This document shows, in pieces, positions 4,581 to 21,988 of a DNA stretch of 64,000 nucleotides. The stretch is taken from assembly GCA_036560145.1 (NCBI GenBank), contig DATBRV010000009.1:16189-80188 (forward strand), in the 5' to 3' direction. The position numbers and the translations under genes were made by a program. Numbering within the stretch: the first letter of the stretch is position 1; every line of letters starts with the position of its first letter. Below the pieces are notes generated by a model. That model saw only the letters and a program-made list of their open reading frames with translations. It did no database searches and was not told the DNA's origin. Source of the stretch: Myxococcota bacterium (GTDB taxonomy: Bacteria; Myxococcota_A; UBA9160; SMWR01).

Positions 4581-5615
4581 GTGTCGCGATCGCTCGAGAT
4601 GACGCTCGCCGCCGTCCTCGTGCTCACCGGATGCGACCGGCTGATCGACCGCCAGATCGAGCGCGGCCTCACGCGCGCCGACGCGAGCGTGCTGAGCTCG
4701 CCGGATCTCCAGGTGGTGCTCTGCGGCACGGGCTCGCCGCTGCCCGACGCGACGCGGGCGGGGCCCTGCACCGCGGTGATCGCGGGCGGGGTCTTCCTGC
4801 TGGTCGACGTCGGCCCCGGCTCCTGGGAGCGGGTGGATCTCGAGAACCTTCCGATCGCCGAGCTGGACGGCGTGCTGCTCACGCACTTCCACTCCGATCA
4901 CATCGGCGACCTCGGCGAGGCGATCACGCAGAGCTGGATCGCGGGGCGGACGCAGCCGCTCGACGTCTACGGTCCGCCGGGGGTCGCCCGGATCCTGGCC
5001 GGGCTGCGCGAGGTCTACGCCTTCGACGTGGAGTACCGCGTCGCCCACCACGGACAGGCCTGGATGCCGCGCGAGGCCGGATCCGCCGTGGCGCACGAGA
5101 TCGCCCTCCCGTCGGAGGGCTCCTCGGACGCGGTGACCGTGCTCGAGCGGGACGGCCTGCGCGTCAGCGCGTTCCGGGTCGATCACACTCCGGTGTCTCC
5201 CGCGGTCGGCTATCGCTTCGACTGGCGAGGGCGCACGCTGGTGATCTCGGGCGATACCGGCCGGAGCGCGAGCCTGGTGGCGAACGCGCGCGGCGCCGAC
5301 CTGCTCGTGCACGAGGCGCTCCAGCCGAAGCTGACCGGGCGCGCGTCGGACGTCGCGCGCCGGCTCGGGCGGGAGCGGATGGCGAAGCTCGCCGGCGACG
5401 TCGCGAGCTACCACACCAGCCCGCGCGACGCGGCGCAGGCGGCCCGCGAGGCGGGGGTGAAGCAGCTGGTCCTCACCCACCTGGTGCCGGGTCCGGAGGG
5501 ACCGCTCGCCGCGCGGCTCTTCCTGGACGGGGCCGGGGAGGCCTTCGAGGGCGAGATCACGCTGGGCGAAGACGGCATGCGCTTCGCCCTGCCGCCGGAG
5601 GCGGGGCTGGATTGA
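4581..5615 (+). CDS. MBL-fold metallo-hydrolase (RNase Z-like), probable lipoprotein
   Basis: Contains the LLTHFHSDHIGDL metal motif. There is a lipobox-like VLTGC near the N-terminus, and an alternative ATG start at 4599. Confidence 0.8.
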   Translation: MSRSLEMTLAAVLVLTGCDRLIDRQIERGLTRADASVLSSPDLQVVLCGTGSPLPDATRAGPCTAVIAGGVFLLVDVGPGSWERVDLENLPIAELDGVLLTHFHSDHIGDLGEAITQSWIAGRTQPLDVYGPPGVARILAGLREVYAFDVEYRVAHHGQAWMPREAGSAVAHEIALPSEGSSDAVTVLERDGLRVSAFRVDHTPVSPAVGYRFDWRGRTLVISGDTGRSASLVANARGADLLVHEALQPKLTGRASDVARRLGRERMAKLAGDVASYHTSPRDAAQAAREAGVKQLVLTHLVPGPEGPLAARLFLDGAGEAFEGEITLGEDGMRFALPPEAGLD

Positions 5616-5640
5616 AGGCTGGCGGGCGCGCCGGCCTTTT

Positions 5641-5656
5641 GTTAGTAAATACTCAC
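5641..5656. promoter_or_regulatory. Candidate TetR operator (imperfect 16-bp palindrome in the only AT-rich patch here)
   Basis: GTTAGTAAATACTCAC pairs at 6 of 8 palindromic positions. It ends 2 nt before the tetR ATG at 5659. Confidence 0.35.
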
Positions 5657-5658
5657 TT

Positions 5659-6357
5659 ATGGCGCCTCCCGCCGCCGCCGCGCCCCGTTCCCGCGCCCCC
5701 GCGCGCGCCCGTCGCACCCGCCCGGGCGGCGCCGAGCGCCGCCAGCAGATCCTGCGGGCGGCCTCGGAGTGCTTCGGCACCCGGGGCTTCCACGGGACGA
5801 CCACCCGCGACGTCGCCGCCGCCGTCGGCATCACCGAGGCGGCGCTCTATCGCTACTTCGACGGCAAGGAGGCGATCTACACCGCCATCCTGGATGCGCG
5901 CATGTCGGCGCCCGATCCGGTCGACGCGGTGGAGGCGTTCGCCGAGCGCGGCGACGACCACGCGGTCTTCAGCGGGCTGCTTGAGGCGCTGTTCGCGCGC
6001 GTGAACGCCGATCCGTCCTTCATCCGCCTGCTCTTCTACTCGGCGCTGGAAGGCCACCAGCTGGCGACCCCCTTCCGGGAGAAGCGGATCCGGCGCCTGC
6101 GCGAGTTCCTGACCGGCTACATCGCGCGCCGCGTCCGGGAGGGCGCGTTCCGGCCGATCGACCCCGCCCTCGGCGCGCGTTTCTTCATCGGCCTCTTCGT
6201 CGATTACGCGCTCGTGCGTCAGGTGTTCGGCGAGCCCGATCTCTACCCGCAGCCTGCGGAGGAGGTCGCGCGCTCCCACGTCGCGATCTTCCTGGACGGA
6301 ATGCGGGCGGCGCCGGCGGCGTCCCGGCGCAAGCCGGCGAGGCGCAAGCGTGGCTGA
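5659..6357 (+). CDS. TetR/AcrR family transcriptional regulator
   Basis: Contains the HTH region FHGTTTRDVAAAVGITEAALYRYFDGKEAIY. It is the first gene of the efflux operon. Confidence 0.9.
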   Translation: MAPPAAAAPRSRAPARARRTRPGGAERRQQILRAASECFGTRGFHGTTTRDVAAAVGITEAALYRYFDGKEAIYTAILDARMSAPDPVDAVEAFAERGDDHAVFSGLLEALFARVNADPSFIRLLFYSALEGHQLATPFREKRIRRLREFLTGYIARRVREGAFRPIDPALGARFFIGLFVDYALVRQVFGEPDLYPQPAEEVARSHVAIFLDGMRAAPAASRRKPARRKRG

Positions 6358-9069: not shown

Positions 9070-10472
9070 TAGACGCCGTACTCGACGGGGTCGACCGCGT
9101 AGGCGAGGCCCGCGAGCGGCTCCCAGCAGACGCGGCGATCGGCGTTGCTGCGGGCGATCTGGTGGAAGGCGCGCAGGGCGCCGCGGCCGTCGAGCTCGCG
9201 CGTATCGAGGCCGAGGTGCTCGAGCAGCAGCTCCTGCCGCAGCGCGCGCACGCTCTCCGGGTGCCAGAAGGAGGCGTTCAGCTCGGTGTCCTGGTGGAAG
9301 GAGCGCTCGGCGACGTTGGTCGAGCCGATCGTGCACCAGGCATCGTCGACCAGCGCGAGCTTGGAGTGCACGTAGACCTCGTCGTAGCGGCCGTCTGCAT
9401 GGCTGGCGGCGATCGCCGCGAGCGTGAAGTTCTCGTGCCGGCCGAGCTGGGCGAGCTTGTCGAAGAAGAACGCGGCCCGCGGCTCCTTGCGCGCCTCCAC
9501 GAACGCCGGGTGCGCGTTGCCGGGCACCAGGAAGACCACCTCGACGCCGCGCCGCAGCGCGGCCTCCAGCGCGTCCACCACCGCCGGCGATCCGATCGCC
9601 TGGTTCTCGAGATAGAGCGAGCTGCGCGCCGCCGCGATCGCCGCCAGGTACTGCTCGAGCACGCTGGCCTCTCCGCCCGCGATCGCGAAGGGCTTCGCCC
9701 CCGGCGCGGGGGTCGCGTCCGCGTAGCGGCCGGCGAGCACGGTCCGCGTGAGCTGCACCGGAACGGGGCCGGCGGGCCTGGACAACAGCGCCGGAAACGC
9801 CAGCGAGTCCGCGCTCCGCGGATCCGGCCAGACGCCGTCCGCCTCGGCGCGGTCGCTCGCCTCGTTCCAGCGCTGCGCGAAGTTGTGATGCACGTCGCTC
9901 GCCGCGGGCCCCCGCAGCTCGAGGTAGACGTCGTGGATCTGCGGCGATCCCCGCACGGCGTGCCCGGCCGGCGCGATCGAGGGCGCGTCGAGGTTGATGC
10001 CGCCGACGAAGGCGACTTCTTCGGGCTCACCGGCGTCCACGATCCAGCTTTTTTGATGCTGGCAGAAGCCGTCCGGCAGGCGATCCCAGCGCGCGCGGAA
10101 ACGGGCCTCCCGATCGCGCAGCCAGGCGAGATCGGCGGCGTTGCCCTCGAAGTGCTCCGAGTCGGGCTCGGCCTCGCGCAGGCGCGGCTCGCGCCAGAAG
10201 AGCGCGCGCACGTCGAGACCGCGGGCGGCCGCGCGCTCCAGCAGGTCGAACACGGTCCCGTGTCCGTCGGGAAGGCGCGCTTCGCGGTCGACGTACGCGA
10301 TCGTCACCCAGACGCGGCGGCGCGCCGCGGCCACCGCCTCCCCGATCCGGCGGAAGGCGGGCTCCCCGTCGACCAGCGGGCGGACGAAGTTGCCGGGCCG
10401 CAGCGGATAGCTGGCGCTCGCGACGCTGGGAACCCGCGCGACCTCGATCTCGATCCCACCGGCCCGACTCAT
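9069..10472 (-). CDS. Phospholipase D / cardiolipin-synthase-like protein (two HKD motifs)
   Basis: The ORF was trimmed to the ATG at 10470-10472 (MSRAGGIEIE...). The HKD motifs are HQKSWIVD and HSKLALVDD. Its ATG overlaps the stop of ltaE in an ATGA. Confidence 0.85.
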   Translation of the reverse strand: MSRAGGIEIEVARVPSVASASYPLRPGNFVRPLVDGEPAFRRIGEAVAAARRRVWVTIAYVDREARLPDGHGTVFDLLERAAARGLDVRALFWREPRLREAEPDSEHFEGNAADLAWLRDREARFRARWDRLPDGFCQHQKSWIVDAGEPEEVAFVGGINLDAPSIAPAGHAVRGSPQIHDVYLELRGPAASDVHHNFAQRWNEASDRAEADGVWPDPRSADSLAFPALLSRPAGPVPVQLTRTVLAGRYADATPAPGAKPFAIAGGEASVLEQYLAAIAAARSSLYLENQAIGSPAVVDALEAALRRGVEVVFLVPGNAHPAFVEARKEPRAAFFFDKLAQLGRHENFTLAAIAASHADGRYDEVYVHSKLALVDDAWCTIGSTNVAERSFHQDTELNASFWHPESVRALRQELLLEHLGLDTRELDGRGALRAFHQIARSNADRRVCWEPLAGLAYAVDPVEYGV

Positions 10473-11491
10473 CGCACGCCCTCCGCCACGACTTCCCCGA
10501 TCCGGCCGAGCGCCTCGTCGATATCGGCCTCGCTGACGTCGAGGTGCGTCACCGCCCGGAAGACGCCGGGCGCCGCGGGGTTCACCAGCACCTCCTGCGC
10601 GCGCGTCGCGCGCAGGAAGCCCATGGTGTCCTCGACGCGGAACATCACCATGTTGGTCTCGGGGGGCGAGTCGACCGGCAGGCCGATCTTCTCGAGCCCC
10701 GCGGCCAGCCGGCGGGCGTTCGCGTGGTCTTCCGCCAGCCGCTCGACGTGGTGCTCGAGCGCGTGCAGGCCCGCCGCGGCGAGGATCCCGGCCTGGCGCA
10801 GGCCGCCGCCCAGCAGCTTGCGGGCCCGGTGCACGCGCCGGATCAGCTCGCGCGAGCCGCACACCAGCGAGCCGGCCGGCGCGCCGAGGCCCTTGGAGAG
10901 ACAGAACGTCACGGTGTCGAAGGGCTCCGCCCAGATCGCCGCGGGGGTTCCGGTCGCGACCACCGCGTTCCACAGGCGCGCGCCGTCGAGGTGCAGCGCG
11001 AGGCCGCGCTCCCTGGCCGCCTGCGCCACGTCCTTCAGCTGCGCGAGCGGGAAGACGCGCCCGCCGGCGCGGTTGTGGGTGTTCTCGACGGCGACGATCC
11101 GGGTGGGGGCGAAATGCGCCTCGTCGGGCGAGACGGCGGCGCGCACGTCGGCGCCGTCGAAGCAGCCGCCGCGCCCGAGCGTCTTGATCTGCACGCCCCA
11201 GAGCGCGGAGGCCGCGCCTCCCTCGTAGAGCAGGATGTGCGCGTCCTCGCCCGCCAGCAGCACGTCGCCCGGCTGCGAGAGCGCGCGCAGGCAGGCCTGG
11301 TTGCCCATCGTGCCGGAGGCGACGAAAAGGGCCGCCTGCTTGCCGAGCTTCTCGGCCGCCAACGCCTGGAGCCGGTTCACGGTCGGATCTTCGCCGTAGA
11401 CGTCGTCGCCGACCTCGGCGCGCGCGATCGCCTCGCGCATCGCGGGCGTGGGCCGCGTCACGGTGTCGCTGCGCAGATCGATCTTGCGCAT
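10469..11491 (-). CDS. ltaE: Low-specificity L-threonine aldolase
   Basis: The ORF was trimmed to MRKIDLRSDTVTRPTPAMREAIA...DDVYGEDPTVN...CLSKGLGAP, which is typical LtaE. The product is 340 aa. Confidence 0.9.
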   Translation of the reverse strand: MRKIDLRSDTVTRPTPAMREAIARAEVGDDVYGEDPTVNRLQALAAEKLGKQAALFVASGTMGNQACLRALSQPGDVLLAGEDAHILLYEGGAASALWGVQIKTLGRGGCFDGADVRAAVSPDEAHFAPTRIVAVENTHNRAGGRVFPLAQLKDVAQAARERGLALHLDGARLWNAVVATGTPAAIWAEPFDTVTFCLSKGLGAPAGSLVCGSRELIRRVHRARKLLGGGLRQAGILAAAGLHALEHHVERLAEDHANARRLAAGLEKIGLPVDSPPETNMVMFRVEDTMGFLRATRAQEVLVNPAAPGVFRAVTHLDVSEADIDEALGRIGEVVAEGVR

Positions 11492-16007: not shown

Positions 16008-17140
16008 GGCTTGGCCGCTTCGGGATCGAGATTCGCGCCGATGCGGAACACGCGATCGAGCGGCGCACGGCGCAGGATCTCGATCGGATCCAGGCCGTGC
16101 TGGTCCGCCAGGAACTCGAGCCCGGCGCTCGCGAAGCGCGCCGCCTTCGCGATCGCGCGCGGCGTCGACTCGGAGTCCGAGAGCGGCAGCCGGTCGGCGA
16201 CCGCAATTTTATTGGCGAGCGCGACCAGCGCGTGGAATGCCGAGCGCCGCTCGTCTTCCTCGAGCGCGGCGATCGTGCGGAAGAGCAGTCCGCTCTCGTC
16301 CGCGTTGGCCGGCAGCCGCGGCATCGCGACCGGGAGCTGCCAGCGCGACGCCGGCGCGAGTGGAGCGGCGTCCGGCGGCAGCGCGGCGCGCTGATCGGGC
16401 GGGAGATAGCGATAGATCGCCATCGCCTCCTCCCAGGGCGGGAAGCCCAGATCCTCGAGCCTGCCGGCGCGCCAGCGCAGGGCCCACTCCTCGGTCTCCG
16501 GCTCGAGCTCCCAGATCACCGACTGGAGCAGACGGAAGTAGCTCCAGTAGTCGCGTTCGAAGAGCGTGCGCAGGAGCGAGACGATCGACGCGGCGTCGTC
16601 GCCTTCCCCCAGCGCCCGGAAGAAGAACTGACCGTCGAGCGTGTCGGCTCCGATGGGGGGCTCCCAGAAATCGTCGTTCGCGCGCAGGAAGACCTCCACG
16701 CGGCCCTTCATGAACAGCGTGAGCAGCTCGGGATCGAGCGCCTGCAACCCGCGCAGCAGCGGCTCCTCGCCGGCCTCCACCAGCGCGCCGATCCAGGCGT
16801 CGAGGCTGCGGCGGTCCGGAAGGGTGCCTTCCCAGCCGTCGAGGTCGACGCAGGCGACCAGCTGCTCCGGCGTGGCGTGCTCGAGCAGCCAGGCGGCGCT
16901 CGCGAGCCCGACCGCCTTGACGGTGAAGCACAGCTCGGCCTCGGGCAGCAGCGGGATCACGCGCTCGGGCTCGGGCAGCAGCTCGAGCAGGGCGGCGCGG
17001 CGCGCGACGGGCGCCTCGCACACGAGCTCCACCTGGACGTCGATCGGCTGCTCGGCGAGCGCCCGCTGCGCGGCGTCCCGGTCCTTTCGCGCGAGGTCGA
17101 GGATCCGCCGCGCGGCGTGGGGGGCCGGCCGTTCGAGCAT
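16004..17140 (-). CDS. Conserved hypothetical protein (DUF6178-like)
   Basis: The 950-aa ORF was trimmed to the ATG at 17138-17140 (MLERPAPHAARRILDL...). The helical-repeat region ATPEQLVACVDLDGWEG resembles my recollection of DUF6178. Confidence 0.6.
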   Translation of the reverse strand: MLERPAPHAARRILDLARKDRDAAQRALAEQPIDVQVELVCEAPVARRAALLELLPEPERVIPLLPEAELCFTVKAVGLASAAWLLEHATPEQLVACVDLDGWEGTLPDRRSLDAWIGALVEAGEEPLLRGLQALDPELLTLFMKGRVEVFLRANDDFWEPPIGADTLDGQFFFRALGEGDDAASIVSLLRTLFERDYWSYFRLLQSVIWELEPETEEWALRWRAGRLEDLGFPPWEEAMAIYRYLPPDQRAALPPDAAPLAPASRWQLPVAMPRLPANADESGLLFRTIAALEEDERRSAFHALVALANKIAVADRLPLSDSESTPRAIAKAARFASAGLEFLADQHGLDPIEILRRAPLDRVFRIGANLDPEAAKP

Positions 17141-17167
17141 GCGGGCAACGGTAGCTATCCTGTGCGC

Positions 17168-17785
17168 ATGCCGTCGATCGCCGAGATCCGCCGCCGCCTG
17201 GCCGCGCACCGCCCGGCCATGCTTCCGGTTGCGGGCCGGCGTCAGGCCGCCGTGGCGATGGTGCTGCGCGACGCCGGCCCGGCGCCCGAGGTGCTCTTCA
17301 TCGAGCGCGCGAGCCATCCCGGCGACCCCTGGTCGGGGCACATGGCCTTCCCGGGCGGCCGCGTCGACCCCGGGGATCCGGACCCGCGCGCCGCCGCCGA
17401 GCGGGAGACGCTCGAAGAGGTGGGCCTCGCGCTGGCGCACGCCGAGCCGCTCGGCCGCCTCGACGACATGAGCGGCCACCACGCCGCCGGCGCCGATTCG
17501 CTGCTGATCTCCGCCTTCGTCTACCGGACCCCGGGCGCGGGCGTGCTGGTGCCGAACCACGAGGTGCGCGAGGCCTTCTGGTTTCCGTTGGCGTCGCTGC
17601 TCGAGCCCGCCCGCTTCGTCGAGCGCTCGGTGGCTCGCGGGGAGAGCTTCCGCTTTCCCGGGATCCTCGTCGGCGAGCCCGACCGCCACGTGGTCTGGGG
17701 ACTCACCTACCGATTCCTCGAGACCTTCTTCCAGATCGTCGGCCGCCCGCTGCCGGATCGCTGGAGCGAGCGGCGAGCGGGCTAA
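17168..17785 (+). CDS. NUDIX hydrolase, CoA pyrophosphatase type
   Basis: Translation from the ATG at 17168 reads MPSIAEIRRRL... It contains FIERASHPGDPWSGHMAFPGG and the Nudix box RETLEEVGL. Confidence 0.85.
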   Translation: MPSIAEIRRRLAAHRPAMLPVAGRRQAAVAMVLRDAGPAPEVLFIERASHPGDPWSGHMAFPGGRVDPGDPDPRAAAERETLEEVGLALAHAEPLGRLDDMSGHHAAGADSLLISAFVYRTPGAGVLVPNHEVREAFWFPLASLLEPARFVERSVARGESFRFPGILVGEPDRHVVWGLTYRFLETFFQIVGRPLPDRWSERRAG

Positions 17786-18804
17786 CGCAACGCCTCCAGG
17801 AAATCGCCGAGATCGCGGATGAAGCCGCGATAGCGGCGCTCGAAGCCGCGCTGCCAGGGCAGCAGGTAGCTGCGGCGCAGCGGCAGATAGAAGAACGGAT
17901 TCGCCTCCCAGAGCACGACGCCGCCGTCCGCGGTGCTGGCGTAGTCGATGCCGCAGACGTCGAGGCCGAGCGCCTTGGCGGCGTGGCGCATCACGTCGTG
18001 ATGCTCTCCCCCCGTCCTCCACCACGCGAGGTCGGCGCGGACGCAGGCCCGCACCTCGCCGCGAAGGCCGTAGCCGGCCTTGCGCCAGCCCGTCGGCGGA
18101 CGGAATGTGCAGGTCTTGAGGCTCACGATCGGGCTCTCCGAGAACAGCACGGAGCGCGGCGAGACCAGCTCGCCCAGCACGAGCGCGCGCTTCTTGTGGA
18201 AGAAGCGCGACCACACGCTGCCGGGCCGCCGGGCGCCAAAGCCCGCCCGGGTGTCCACGAACTCGGCGATCGCGCCCGGATAGGCGATCTTCCGCCGGTC
18301 GAGACTGCGCCGCGCCTCGGCGCCCGACGCGAAGACCCACATCCCCCGCTGCGCGTGCAGGTGCTCGGCCTTGAGCAGGACCGGGCCGTCGAACCCCGCG
18401 AGCTTCTCCTCCAGCTCCGAGCGGTCCGCGAAGGCGACGTGCCGCGGTGTCGGAATGCCGGCCTCCGCCCAGCGGCGCGCCTGTTCGCTCTTGATGGTGT
18501 GCGAGAGCGCCTCTGGCGGGTTCGCGAGGCGGATGCCGCGGGCCTGCGCCCGTTGCGCGATCTCCTGCGCCTCCTCGAAGCAGGCCGGATAGCGCTCGCG
18601 CAGCGGGTCGGCGAGCCAGAAGAAGACGGCGCGAACGCCCGCGAGATCCGGCGTCGGGCCGCCGCCGGTCTCGTGGAATCGGATCGCGGCCGGCAGCTGC
18701 GGCCTCTCCACGGCCAGCCGCTGGAGCGCCGGCTCCAGCGTCACGACCTCGCGGCCGCGGCCGGGCCCGTGCCGGACGATCAGCACGTCCCCCCGGCGCG
18801 TCAT
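17782..18804 (-). CDS. ATP-grasp domain protein (ligase of unknown substrate)
   Basis: The ORF was trimmed to MTRRGDVLIVRHG... It has central ATP-grasp-like blocks (PVLLKAEHLHAQRGMWV and CGIDYASTADGGVVLWEANP). Its start lies 2 nt after the DUF3326 stop. Confidence 0.7.
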   Translation of the reverse strand: MTRRGDVLIVRHGPGRGREVVTLEPALQRLAVERPQLPAAIRFHETGGGPTPDLAGVRAVFFWLADPLRERYPACFEEAQEIAQRAQARGIRLANPPEALSHTIKSEQARRWAEAGIPTPRHVAFADRSELEEKLAGFDGPVLLKAEHLHAQRGMWVFASGAEARRSLDRRKIAYPGAIAEFVDTRAGFGARRPGSVWSRFFHKKRALVLGELVSPRSVLFSESPIVSLKTCTFRPPTGWRKAGYGLRGEVRACVRADLAWWRTGGEHHDVMRHAAKALGLDVCGIDYASTADGGVVLWEANPFFYLPLRRSYLLPWQRGFERRYRGFIRDLGDFLEALR

Positions 18805-18806
18805 GT

Positions 18807-20108
18807 TCAGATCCGCCGCGCCGTGCCGAGCGGGCGCCGGAGCGCGGCGGGCGCAATTCCCTCGCGCAGCGCCAGCAGCAGGCCGGCCGCCTCCAGGTAG
18901 GACTCCACCTCGATCACGTTCGGCATGCCGAGCCGGTCGTTGCCGACGCGGAGCACGCTCGTGTTCTCGCGCACCGCGATCAGCGGGATTCCGTTCCATT
19001 CGGCGGCCAGCGCGGGGATGCCGCCGAGCGCGCCCGCGGGCGCCACCACCGCGCCGACGTTCTCGAGCGTGATCCAGCCCGGCCGGGACGCCTCCAGCGA
19101 TTCCAGCACGCGCAGCCGCGGCGCGCGGTGCAGGCCCTTCAGCACGCAGAAGTAGTGCGGCGCCGAGAGGAACTCCGCCGCGGCGCGGGGGTTCGCGGTG
19201 TCAGGTCGTTTCAGGTCCTGGTAGTACGGAAGCGGCGCGTGGGCGGTGGGCACGCGGAAGAGCTTCGAGATCAGGTGCGTGATGATCGCCTCGACTCCGC
19301 CGGAGGGGTTCGGGGTTTCGCCGCGCTGGTGCCGCGCGAACATCTCCCCGGTGACGCCGTGGATCACGGAAACGCCGCCCACGGCGTCGCAGCCGCTCGC
19401 GAGCAGCCGCTCCACGCCCTCCACCAGCGTCTCGGGGTTCCGCAGCGTGCCGACCGCGCAGCCGGACTCCGACCACGCGATCTCGACGCCCATCTCCTGA
19501 TCCAGGACCGTGTAGGTCTCGCAATCCACGCCCTTCACGGCCAGCGCGGCGTGCAGGGCGTGGATCACCATGTCGAGGTGCTTCGCGCCCGTCGGGTCGA
19601 CGAAGCTGCCGATCCGGTTGGCGGCGACCGGGTCGAGGGCAAGGTGGCCGAGCAGGAAATCGTCGAGCGAACGGCCTTCGACGTAGAGCACGTTCGCCGC
19701 CAGCTCGTTCAGCTCCGAGGCGTTCACCGCGTTCGGGTGCGTCACCAGCAGATCCGAAGCGGCGGCGAGCAGGTTGCTGGCGGGTGCGGCGTCGCCCGCG
19801 AAGCCTCCGATCTCGCAGCCGATGCCCGTCGGCACGATCTGCACGACCGCGAACGGTCGCGCCTGCCGCTGGCGCCGGCGCGCCTCCAGGATCTCGCTGC
19901 GCGCGAGCCGCGCGAGGATCCGCTCGTCCGGGGCGCAGCGCACGACGGTGGCCTCGACGCGCGCCTCGCCGCCGTCCAGCGCGGCGATCGCGAAGCGCAG
20001 CGGGAACGCTCCGTCGCCCAGCTGCGAGGCGAGCCCGCGCGCGAGATGCGGAAGCCAGGGGCCCGCGGGCCGGCCGGGCAGGCGCAGCGAGAGGTTCTCG
20101 ATCCGCAC
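18807..20108 (-). CDS. DUF3326 domain protein with an N-terminal extension of about 95 aa
   Basis: GTG start. The core VQIVPTGIGCEIGGFAGDAAP...NPSGGVEAIITHLISK matches my memory of DUF3326. Confidence 0.7.
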   Translation of the reverse strand: MRIENLSLRLPGRPAGPWLPHLARGLASQLGDGAFPLRFAIAALDGGEARVEATVVRCAPDERILARLARSEILEARRRQRQARPFAVVQIVPTGIGCEIGGFAGDAAPASNLLAAASDLLVTHPNAVNASELNELAANVLYVEGRSLDDFLLGHLALDPVAANRIGSFVDPTGAKHLDMVIHALHAALAVKGVDCETYTVLDQEMGVEIAWSESGCAVGTLRNPETLVEGVERLLASGCDAVGGVSVIHGVTGEMFARHQRGETPNPSGGVEAIITHLISKLFRVPTAHAPLPYYQDLKRPDTANPRAAAEFLSAPHYFCVLKGLHRAPRLRVLESLEASRPGWITLENVGAVVAPAGALGGIPALAAEWNGIPLIAVRENTSVLRVGNDRLGMPNVIEVESYLEAAGLLLALREGIAPAALRRPLGTARRI

Positions 20109-20188
20109 GCGCTAGGCCCCCGGCCGGACGCCCGCGGCGAAGACGAGGCTCCACTGCATGCGCGCGCGAATGCGATCCGGAGCGGCGT

Positions 20189-20743
20189 TCACGGCTTCGG
20201 AAGCGCCGGCATCACCGCGACGTCGATCACCAGGCGGTCGGCTTCGCGTTCGAGGGCGTCGCGCAGCGCGCGTATCTCGAGTGTGTCGGGCACCTCGACG
20301 CGCAGCGACATCTCGTAGTGGGGCGAGCCGCCGGGCCCCGGGCGGCTCGTGCTCGAGAGCTCGGCGATGTTGACGCCGCGATCGGCGAGCACGCGGCAGA
20401 GCCCTGCCACGATCCCGGCGCGGTCTTCGCCGGCCGCCTCGACCCGGTAGAGCTTGGTGCCCGGGGCGGGCACGGGAGGCCGGCGCTCGCCTTCCAGCGA
20501 GCGCAGCAGGATGGTGAGGCCGTGATCGCGCTCGAGCCGCTTCGCGCCGACCGCGATCCGATCCGCCGTGTCCGGGGCGGAGGTGGAGCAGAGCAGGATC
20601 ACGGCGAAATCGGTTCCCAGGATCGTCATGCGCGAATCCTCGAGATTCGCGCCGCAGTCGTAGATCAGGCTCGCGAGCTCGGCGACCAGGCCGGGCCGGT
20701 CGCTGCCGATCGCGGAGAGGAGGATCCACCGCTTCATCGTCAC
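20189..20743 (-). CDS. Tandem ACT-domain protein (GcvR-like)
   Basis: Two ACT units are present: ILLSAIGSDRPGLVAELASLIYDCGANLEDS and VEAAGEDRAGIVAGLCRVLADRGVNIAEL. Confidence 0.8.
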   Translation of the reverse strand: MTMKRWILLSAIGSDRPGLVAELASLIYDCGANLEDSRMTILGTDFAVILLCSTSAPDTADRIAVGAKRLERDHGLTILLRSLEGERRPPVPAPGTKLYRVEAAGEDRAGIVAGLCRVLADRGVNIAELSSTSRPGPGGSPHYEMSLRVEVPDTLEIRALRDALEREADRLVIDVAVMPALPKP

Positions 20744-21038
20744 CTCGGGCCGTGTGCGGCGAGTGATACCCTCCGCCGGCGGTCCGCCGCAAGTCTCGCG
20801 TCTGCGCTCGCCGGCGGCTCGCGGCGATGTGGGCTGGGGGCTCGTCCTCGGGGTCGCCCGGGTCGAAGCCGGCGCAGCGCTGCACCGGGAGCGGCGGGTA
20901 GCGGCGATAGGCCGGGTCGGAATCGGCGCGCCGGCAGCGCCAGAAGCGCCCGCCGCGGGCGCTGCGCTGGAGCGCCGCGAAGCGGCAGCGCGTGCACAGC
21001 CCCACCCGCGCGCGCTCGCCGTTCGCGTTCGGTTCCAC
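20744..21038 (-). CDS. Cys4 mini-protein (CxxC...C...C); 3' end unresolved
   Basis: The GTG at 21036-21038 starts MEPNANGERARVGLCTRCRFAALQRSARGGRFWRCRRADSDPAYRRYPPLPVQRCAGFDPGD. Third-codon-position GC (GC3) is near 95% for the first 70 or so codons, then drops. This frame has no stop until 20112, deep inside the ACT gene. Confidence 0.35.
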
Positions 21039-21064
21039 GGGCGATCAGTCTACAATCGGCGCCG

Positions 21065-21988
21065 ATGGGACGCCTCGGCGAGATCGCGCTCCGCCTGCAA
21101 CGCGTGCTCGAGCTCGGCGAGCGGCTGCTGGCCGAGCTCGCCGGCGCCGGGCCGGATCCCGGGGCCTTCGAGCGCTGCCTCGCCTTCCGCTGGGAGGCGG
21201 ACCGCGGGCCCGGCCGGCTCGCTCCGATCGCCGAGCCGCAGCTCTTCGACCTCGACGATCTGATCGGCGTCGAACGTTCGCTCGCCAGGCTGCTCGCCAA
21301 CACGGAGCAGTTCGTGCACGGGCTGCCGGCGAACCACGTGCTCCTCTTCGGCGAGCGCGGCACGGGAAAATCCTCGGCCGTGCGGGGGCTGGTGGCGCGC
21401 TTCGGCGGCCAGGGTCTGCGCGTGGTCGAGGTGCGCAAGGAGGACCTGCTGCACCTGCCGCGCGTGCTCGAAGCGCTGCGCGGCGCGCCCTTCCGCTTCC
21501 TGCTCTTCTGCGACGATCTCTCCTTCGACGCGGGCGAGACGCGCTACCGGGAGCTCAAGGCGGCGCTGGAGGGGAGCCTGCTCTCGCCGCCGTCCAACGT
21601 GCGCATCATCGCGACCAGCAACCGCCGCCACCTGCTGCCGGAGACCGCCGCCGACAATCTTGCGGCGCGCCTCGACGAGGCGGGCGACCTGCACATGGGC
21701 GAGGTCGTCGACGAGAAGCTCGCGCTCTCGGACCGCTTCGGTCTGGTGCTCGGCTTCTACGGCTTCGACCAGGCCACCTATCTCGCGATCGTGAACCGCT
21801 ACGCGACACAGGCGGGGATCCTCGCACCACGCGAAGAGCTGCACGCGCAGGCCCTGCGCTTCGCGCTCGAGCGCTCCAGCCGCTCGGGGCGGACCGCGCG
21901 CCACTTCGTCGACGATCTCGCCGGCCGCGAGCGACTGGCGCGCGTCGTCGCGCCGACGCATGCTCCGAAGTCTTCCGACGGAGGGTGA
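21065..21988 (+). CDS. DUF815 family AAA-type ATP-binding protein
   Basis: Translation from the ATG at 21065. Contains the Walker A GERGTGKSS, FCDDLSF, ATSNRRHLLPE and EKLALSDRFGL. Confidence 0.85.
   Translation: MGRLGEIALRLQRVLELGERLLAELAGAGPDPGAFERCLAFRWEADRGPGRLAPIAEPQLFDLDDLIGVERSLARLLANTEQFVHGLPANHVLLFGERGTGKSSAVRGLVARFGGQGLRVVEVRKEDLLHLPRVLEALRGAPFRFLLFCDDLSFDAGETRYRELKAALEGSLLSPPSNVRIIATSNRRHLLPETAADNLAARLDEAGDLHMGEVVDEKLALSDRFGLVLGFYGFDQATYLAIVNRYATQAGILAPREELHAQALRFALERSSRSGRTARHFVDDLAGRERLARVVAPTHAPKSSDGG

Follow-up and report, generated by a model that had tools for sequence, protein, structure and literature searches.

A stretch of 64,000 nucleotides (nt) from a Myxococcota bacterium (contig DATBRV010000009.1), hereafter the window, which has a GC content of about 72%, carries four co-directional genes on its minus strand at positions 17782-21038. 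From upstream to downstream, these encode a small protein with four cysteines (Cys4 mini-protein; conserved core at 20861..21038), a tandem-ACT protein of about 182 amino acids (aa; 20189..20737), a DUF3326 protein of 433 aa (18807..20108) and an ATP-grasp ligase of 340 aa (17782..18804). A preliminary description of this DNA had presented them as one tightly spaced operon. The listing of open reading frames (ORFs) bears out the four genes and their common strand, and direct reading confirms that the DUF3326 stop codon (TGA, 18809-18807) is followed by 'ac' and then by the ATP-grasp start codon (ATG, 18804), a gap of 2 nt; tight spacing therefore holds for this pair but not for ACT and DUF3326, between which direct reading gives an 80-nt spacer (20109..20188, minus strand). 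This spacer is the junction of two gene pairs, Cys4-ACT (module A) and DUF3326-ATP-grasp (module B), which are separable, whether by insertion in the clade of the window or by loss elsewhere. The comparison loci and relatives are given L numbers below, among which L004 is a close relative of the window.

The DUF3326 protein matches PF11805 over aa 88-424 (296.6 bits, cut-off 25; profile positions 2-337 of 337), while about 87 N-terminal aa fall outside the Pfam model. This N-terminal stretch, which had been described as an extra domain, belongs to the normal architecture of the family, as all 120 listed best homologues (428-492 aa, 59-100% identity, 96-100% query coverage) span it and the Pfam model does not, and its residues N5, W18, L37 and E52 are invariant. 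The taxa named among these listed homologues include Binatia, Anaerolineae, Bryobacteraceae and cyanobacteria, and identity across phyla is about 60% at full coverage. In 45 DUF3326 sequences, 97 columns are invariant, including C98, C217 and several histidines. An AlphaFold2 (AF2) model with a predicted local distance difference test score (pLDDT) of 85.6 places an N-terminal beta-alpha-beta-beta unit (aa 1 to ~87) on two alpha/beta domains; in the central domain, the first strand runs into a Gly-rich loop, PTGIxCExGGFAGDA. No match was found for this model by Foldseek against PDB at E <= 0.001, nor for the protein against PDB chains by single-sequence and profile search. The best TM-scores (0.15-0.21), to GT-B glycosyltransferases, LacI-type proteins and lumazine synthase, were set aside as reflecting a generic alpha/beta arrangement. 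The protein is probably an enzyme. Our literature search on DUF3326/PF11805 returned no paper that assigns it a function, as had been stated before. In L004 (5694-6995), the DUF3326 sequence is scattered over four frames, with genes of 178 and 112 aa called, between intact neighbours; the cause is either assembly indels or decay of the gene.

The ATP-grasp protein is 100% identical to the NCBI entry 'MAG TPA: hypothetical protein VII72_00955 [Myxococcota bacterium]' and has 141 homologues, nearly all of them unnamed. It has no Pfam match at E <= 0.01 (PF02222 reaches 15.6 bits against a cut-off of 27), weak PurK and RimK matches only in NCBIfam (TIGR00768, rimK_fam, 24.3 bits against a cut-off of 143.4), and marginal PurD matches only among PDB chains (E 0.008). 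Its identity, which falls below the Pfam cut-off, is carried by the fold: the AF2 model, built from a 32-sequence alignment (A1), has a pLDDT of 92.5 and a predicted TM-score (pTM) of 0.91, and Foldseek against PDB returned 614 matches at E <= 0.001, the top 50 of which are almost all ATP-grasp ligases at probability 1.0. The top folds (E ~1e-12) are PsnB, LysX/ArgX, DdlA/B, DcsG and RimK, at 11-18% identity. Residues D287, E300 and N302 (IDY...LWEANP) are invariant in 32 homologues, and their spacing equals that of the Mg-binding D257, E270 and N272 of E. coli DdlB. Because of this confident fold and the invariant D/E/N triad, the modelled enzyme looks catalytically competent. It lies outside every characterised subfamily, and the confident clustering with RimK, cyanophycin synthetase or D-Ala-D-Ala ligase that had been named as a possible outcome did not occur (24 against 143 bits for RimK). 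Compared with L004, the ATP-grasp gene is the fastest-evolving one of the block, with 81% aa identity against 92-96% for ACT, DUF815 and NUDIX.

Two sets of loci were used to follow these genes: an ATP-grasp-seeded scan with one genome per species, which gave 59 loci from many phyla, including the cultured Hyphomonas (e.g., Hyphomonas jannaschiana VP2, L043), and a DUF3326-seeded set of 80 metagenomic loci. DUF3326 is followed by ATP-grasp in the same orientation after 1-5 nt in the window, L004, L006, L066 and L067, and the same order is kept in L137 and L144 with gaps of 143 and 89 nt. The DUF3326 proteins of L137, L141 and L144 are 53-56% identical to that of the window; a full-length ATP-grasp protein of 41-42% identity lies directly downstream in L137 and L144, and L141 has a 46-aa partial match only. 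In the ATP-grasp-seeded search, DUF3326 adjoins ATP-grasp only in L004 (81% identical) and L006 (57%), the latter of which has a class-I S-adenosylmethionine-dependent methyltransferase (MT) in the order MT-DUF3326-ATPgrasp and a flanking context different from that of the window. A neighbour-joining tree places the DUF3326- or MT-linked ATP-grasp proteins (window, L004, L067, L006, L005, L137 and L144) in one subclade together with L003, L007 and L009. The tree of DUF3326 proteins has two clades of ATP-grasp-linked members, both within the MT-associated part and outside a large clade linked to nonribosomal peptide synthetases (NRPSs). Module B is thus a recurrent, tightly coupled pair.

Neighbours of DUF3326 were taken as non-overlapping ORFs chosen by cross-locus conservation and then clustered; stop-to-stop ORFs had given mostly high-GC shadow ORFs. 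The dominant neighbour is an NRPS of about 1300 aa, which in 44 of the 80 loci is the next gene downstream in the same orientation, at a median distance of 3 nt. Its Pfam domains are Condensation, AMP-binding, PP-binding and Thioesterase, which correspond to a single module (condensation, adenylation, thiolation, thioesterase; C-A-T-TE). The NRPS loci are found among L068-L145 (e.g., L108:3274-7368) and in L149 (3370-6663). The HHxxxDG motif is intact in 25 NRPSs that include the condensation domain; one has HHIIADA instead, and 12 sequences do not cover this region. The adenylation code, at positions placed by GrsA numbering, reads DDW(F/L)TGGI(A/G/S)K in 25 of 38 DUF3326-adjacent NRPSs from many phyla, and such a common code suggests one conserved substrate. 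The code matches no specificity that we can name, and no substrate is claimed here. No paper describing these DUF3326-NRPS clusters was found in the searchable literature.

Other neighbours in the 80 loci are a phosphopantetheinyl transferase (PPTase; 8 loci), an MbtH-like protein (3 loci), the MT just upstream of DUF3326 (7 loci; Methyltransf_11/25 family in these sister cassettes), a downstream, weakly AMP-binding-like protein (3 loci; 29.5 bits against a cut-off of 29.9) and an unannotated protein of about 370 aa, termed C6, beside DUF3326 (4-6 loci). In a stricter tally of the 63 DUF3326 loci with at least 600 nt downstream, an NRPS was counted in at least 32, ATP-grasp in 6, C6 in 4-6 and the AMP-binding-like protein in 3, so that at least 41 of the 63 have a ligase-type gene (NRPS, ATP-grasp or AMP-binding-like) immediately after DUF3326 in the same direction. 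Three loci of the L121 clade with MT and DUF3326 and nothing downstream have a convergent TupA-like ATP-grasp gene (PF14305). The cultured filamentous cyanobacterium LEGE 11480 (L149; assembly GCA_015207035.1, contig JADEXQ010000061.1) carries DUF3326, then a C-A-T NRPS, then a methyltransferase of an unrelated family; the idea of one methyltransferase common to both types of cluster was dropped, as the one in L149 is unrelated to the MT of the ATP-grasp cassettes. Across the whole 64 kb of the window, no homologue of MT, NRPS, PPTase, MbtH, C6 or the AMP-binding-like protein was found at E <= 1e-3.

Even with thresholds relaxed, C6 matched nothing in Pfam or PDB. It lies downstream of MT-DUF3326 in L101, L102, L142 and L143 (e.g., L143:9496-10614) and upstream of MT-ATPgrasp in L061 and L062, where the order is C6-MT-ATPgrasp, and it may be a further alternative partner enzyme of the DUF3326 pathway. 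The protein bears a TRGIDS-like motif and a C-terminal CxxCxxC, which might make it a PP-loop ATPase, a guess on which no conclusion here depends. The MT of the type found with DUF3326 also lies directly upstream of ATP-grasp in 7 of 65 loci (L005, L006, L053, L060-L062 and L065). MT, DUF3326, C6 and ATP-grasp are thus a small network of recombining neighbours.

These neighbourhoods bear on the idea that DUF3326 and ATP-grasp adjoin by chance and have unrelated functions. Most members of the ATP-grasp family have other neighbours, and many DUF3326 genes lack this ATP-grasp, both of which speak for a fortuitous pair. However, the same order recurs with ATP-grasp proteins down to 41% identity and in different flanks, the DUF3326-linked ATP-grasps fall in one subclade, and a ligase-type enzyme stands beside DUF3326 in most loci examined; we therefore regard chance adjacency as improbable.

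Among its other contexts, the ATP-grasp gene forms a triad with a GNAT-like gene and a PhyH gene (Fe/2-oxoglutarate dioxygenase) in L002, L013, L017-L021, L025, L027, L034, L036 and L050, while L031 has GNAT alone and in L001 PhyH is accompanied by a phosphoribosyltransferase. In most loci of the GNAT/PhyH type, ATP-grasp is found at about 10001-11000, and these loci span several phyla, including Gemmatimonadota, Eisenbacteria, Acidobacteriota and Pirellulaceae. The triad probably belongs to a further orphan pathway for small molecules, in which the same ligase family is employed. As well, the ATP-grasp loci of the Hyphomonas clade have neither MT nor GNAT/PhyH neighbours.

The first gene of the locus, encoding the Cys4 mini-protein of zinc-ribbon type (CxxC...WRC...RYPPLPVxxC), starts at GTG 21038. 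Its frame stays open until 20112, giving an ORF of 308 aa that runs across the ACT gene in another frame, so that the ACT gene does not start where the Cys4 ORF region ends, as had been thought. The protein has 43 close small homologues (59-102 aa), and a profile search of 1.84 billion representatives gave 2254 clusters (50% identity) at E <= 0.001, nearly all of which are small and stand-alone. In the alignment (A3), C15, C18, C35, C55 and RYPPLPV are invariant, and conservation does not extend to the C-terminal tail. Between the window and L004, the 59-codon core differs by 8 synonymous and 3 non-synonymous codon changes, a pattern indicative of purifying selection on the core. The homologue set and the codon-change pattern together establish that this ORF is a real gene. 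All of its relatives are named 'hypothetical protein' or left unnamed in the databases.

Two Cys4 homologues stop right after ...AASRRRA, where the window has CAG (codon ~20816-20814); the stop codon thus appears to have been lost in the window, either as a true read-through extension or as a consensus error in the metagenome-assembled genome (MAG). At the other end of the gene, about 60 nt are 100% identical between the window (~21001-21064) and L004 (~4785-4850), though the flanking coding DNA has diverged. This segment covers the intergenic region between DUF815 and Cys4 and runs into the start of the annotated Cys4 ORF. It may represent a divergent promoter or 5' leader common to both, and the true Cys4 start may be a later GTG just before GLC.

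The tandem-ACT protein matches PF13740 (ACT_6) and PF01842 (ACT), in agreement with its earlier identification. Its gene is listed at 20189-20743 (GTG 20743), but the start is probably ATG 20737, because GAGGTG lies just upstream and the resulting N-terminus, MKRWILLS, is common to L004. Against PRK11589, the equivalog model of GcvR, the protein scores 60.1 bits with a cut-off of 267, and it is GcvR-like in architecture only. The ACT gene is always preceded by a Cys4 gene in the relatives examined.

Two plus-strand genes flank the block. A DUF815 AAA-type ATPase gene (21080..21988; PF05673, 318.8 bits) is divergent from Cys4-ACT, and a NUDIX hydrolase gene (17120..17785; PF00293) is convergent, its stop codon overlapping that of ATP-grasp. 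Both serve as landmarks in the relatives that carry Cys4-ACT. The order in L146, L147 and L148 is DUF815(-), Cys4-ACT(+), NUDIX(-), with ACT directly abutting NUDIX; the Cys4 proteins there are 44-57% identical overall to that of the window and the ACT proteins ~72%, and tblastn found neither DUF3326 nor ATP-grasp in these three loci. In L151 (5764-8551), a MoxR-like AAA gene and a 648-aa gene fill the slot between ACT and NUDIX. Such empty or differently filled slots indicate that the region downstream of ACT is variable, and module B occupies this variable slot. DUF815 is divergent directly beside Cys4-ACT in L004, L148 and L151, as in the window; L146 and L147 show a 4-nt overlap between Cys4 and ACT. 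Module A is accordingly a translationally coupled pair that is conserved in this Myxococcota lineage, divergent to the DUF815 ATPase gene. The Cys4-ACT pairs of L146, L147, L148 and L151 are located around 5001-5767, and a GH31 glycosidase gene sits between DUF815 and Cys4 in L146 and L147 (2560-5004), so that the neighbourhood takes different insertions in different relatives.

The distribution of the two pairs bears on the proposal that all four genes form one operon, in which ACT senses an amino acid and regulates ligation by DUF3326 and ATP-grasp, with Cys4 as an accessory. The common strand, the 80-nt gap between ACT and DUF3326 and the lack of a detected terminator are compatible with it, and the whole four-gene neighbourhood is syntenic in L004. 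However, L004 is too near (neighbouring proteins 81-96% identical) for its synteny to mean much. Its spacer between ACT and DUF3326 is shorter and different; in that of the window (20109-20188), a scan for promoter and terminator consensus came up empty, a result of no informative value at 72% GC. Against the operon, tblastn found no DUF3326, ACT, Cys4, DUF815 or NUDIX within 10 kb in the 59 ATP-grasp loci. ACT and Cys4 are likewise missing from all 58 DUF3326 loci with room upstream, L006, L137, L141 and L144 have module B without ACT, and Cys4-ACT occurs without DUF3326 and ATP-grasp in four of four more distant relatives (L146, L147, L148 and L151). The four genes thus do not co-localise as one conserved unit, contrary to the preliminary description. 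As a conserved module, the four-gene operon is largely refuted, and we consider it unlikely as an explanation of the locus; since the two pairs occur apart, and ACT is absent beside the 58 DUF3326 and 59 ATP-grasp loci, regulation of the ligase through ACT is without comparative support.

It is very unlikely that the ATP-grasp enzyme modifies a protein or peptide, acting either like LysX/ArgX with Cys4 as a LysW-type carrier or like RimK or PsnB on a peptide or on DUF3326: PsnB (a graspetide macrocyclase), LysX/ArgX and RimK are indeed among the top Foldseek matches, and the short Cys4 protein, with its four Cys and an acidic tail (DPGDPEDE), superficially resembles LysW, but identity to LysX, PsnB and RimK is low, Ddl and DcsG score about equally, Cys4 accompanies the ATP-grasp family in 0 of 59 loci outside the close relatives of the window and pairs with ACT where ATP-grasp is absent, its C-terminal tail is not conserved, the conserved neighbours of ATP-grasp are enzymes (MT, DUF3326, GNAT and PhyH) and not short precursor ORFs, and an NRPS in the corresponding place points to small-molecule chemistry. 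No short ORF that could encode a graspetide precursor was seen among the recurrent clustered neighbours, in which ORFs under 60-70 aa were not searched systematically.

The explanation that we favour, with moderate confidence, is that the locus is a composite of two modules, in which Cys4-ACT is followed by a DUF3326-ATP-grasp cassette that forms an amide bond and whose ATP-grasp enzyme is the counterpart of an NRPS. In this cassette, DUF3326 would make or tailor a small building block, and the ATP-grasp enzyme, by analogy to its superfamily, would activate a carboxylate as an acyl-phosphate and join it to an amine, most likely yielding a small amide-linked metabolite. Gene identities, folds and neighbourhood counts are direct results here, whereas this enzymology and product are inferred, as is the equivalence of the two ligases, which rests on their position: since an NRPS is usually directly downstream of DUF3326, the ATP-grasp enzyme may stand in for the single-module NRPS found there in most DUF3326 loci of other phyla, and the cassette in the window would be the minimal ATP-grasp variant of the same widespread orphan DUF3326-plus-ligase pathway. 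The earlier suggestion of a small-molecule ligation module that maps to no described pathway is thus retained for DUF3326 and ATP-grasp and given up for ACT and Cys4.

Several points weigh against the composite explanation. All 59 species-representative ATP-grasp loci lack DUF3326, from which it follows that the chemistry of the ATP-grasp family is not tied to DUF3326, and GNAT and PhyH genes are found downstream of ATP-grasp instead in 13 loci. The clade of the window lacks the MT of the sister cassettes. On the side of DUF3326, 16 of the 63 loci have none of the tested partners downstream, L150 has DUF3326 with no ligase nearby, and the only contexts found in the literature are both ligase-free: a ferredoxin neighbourhood, the fed3-duf650-duf3326 cluster of the cyanobacterium Synechocystis (PMC4284462), and pavABC, in which DUF3326 is represented by PavB (bioRxiv 10.64898/2026.06.12.731819). 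As well, the reaction, substrate and product are not readable from sequence, and DUF3326 has no structural relative. Finally, all four genes could be co-transcribed in this organism, given the same strand, the 80-nt gap and the fact that no terminator was found.

If the composite explanation is true, a two-gene cassette of 2.3 kb would be a tractable entry to the function of DUF3326, a highly conserved family present in many phyla, and genome mining aimed at NRPS and polyketide synthase (PKS) genes may overlook such ATP-grasp cassettes. For annotation, the ACT and Cys4 genes should not be counted in the DUF3326/ATP-grasp pathway. A bolder reading, which we put forward tentatively as possible rather than probable, is that DUF3326 is a new enzyme class supplying the core of a widespread, undiscovered family of amide-linked metabolites, in which the attachment of an amino acid has been solved several times independently, namely by the C-A-T-TE NRPS, the ATP-grasp family of the window, the TupA-like ATP-grasp and possibly the adenylate-forming-like enzyme. 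If so, the window would hold the smallest, two-gene version for reconstitution. The DUF3326-plus-ligase cluster family is undescribed as far as the searchable literature shows, and it holds no surprise at the level of mechanism so far.

Among the known systems, GcvR/UPF0237 is similar to the ACT protein in its two ACT domains and its length of about 180 aa, and differs from it in the score against the GcvR model (60 against 267 bits). A preceding Cys4 mini-protein gene is not a known feature of GcvR. The ATP-grasp protein has the fold (Foldseek probability 1.0), the D...ExN triad and the expected acyl-phosphate/amide chemistry in common with the RimK, LysX-ArgX and Ddl group. However, it is only 11-18% identical to these enzymes, falls below the NCBIfam and Pfam cut-offs, and has no LysW, S6 or peptidoglycan context.

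As for DUF3326, the only functional context in the searchable literature is pavABC, which belongs to the toxin pavettamine, a hydroxylated polyamine, and in which the likeness is by domain only, PavB being a DUF3326 protein in a cluster for a small-molecule amine (bioRxiv 10.64898/2026.06.12.731819). Unlike in the window, DUF3326 is paired there with a Rieske/decarboxylase fusion and a JmjC protein, no ligase is present, and the role of PavB is not established. The DUF3326-NRPS clusters, such as those of LEGE 11480 and of many Acidobacteriota and Binatia MAGs, are closer, with a DUF3326 protein that is about 60% identical and occupies the same place upstream of an ATP-dependent ligase. In the window, however, the ligase is a 340-aa ATP-grasp protein and not an NRPS of about 1300 aa, neither a PPTase nor MbtH is present, and the DUF3326 protein belongs to the MT-associated, non-NRPS part of the tree.

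The biosynthesis of mycosporine-like amino acids offers the nearest parallel in logic, because the ATP-grasp enzyme MysD and the NRPS-like MysE perform the same step there (PMC10666671). The likeness to these clusters (MysA-MysB-MysC with MysD or MysE) is that ATP-grasp and NRPS-like alternatives attach an amino acid to a core made by a neighbouring enzyme; MysE has the domains A-T-TE, sometimes with a C domain, and a methyltransferase is often present (PMC10666671). However, no dehydroquinate synthase (DHQS)-like MysA is encoded among the four genes of the window or in their immediate flanks, and the part of the core enzyme falls here to DUF3326, whose fold is unrelated. The analogy is one of logic only. 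MysB is presumably a different type of O-methyltransferase from the MT (Methyltransf_11/25) of the sister cassettes. If the favoured composite of Cys4-ACT and an amide-forming DUF3326-ATP-grasp cassette is true, the latter would be a second natural case, after MysD and MysE, in which an ATP-grasp enzyme and an NRPS are interchangeable beside one core enzyme.

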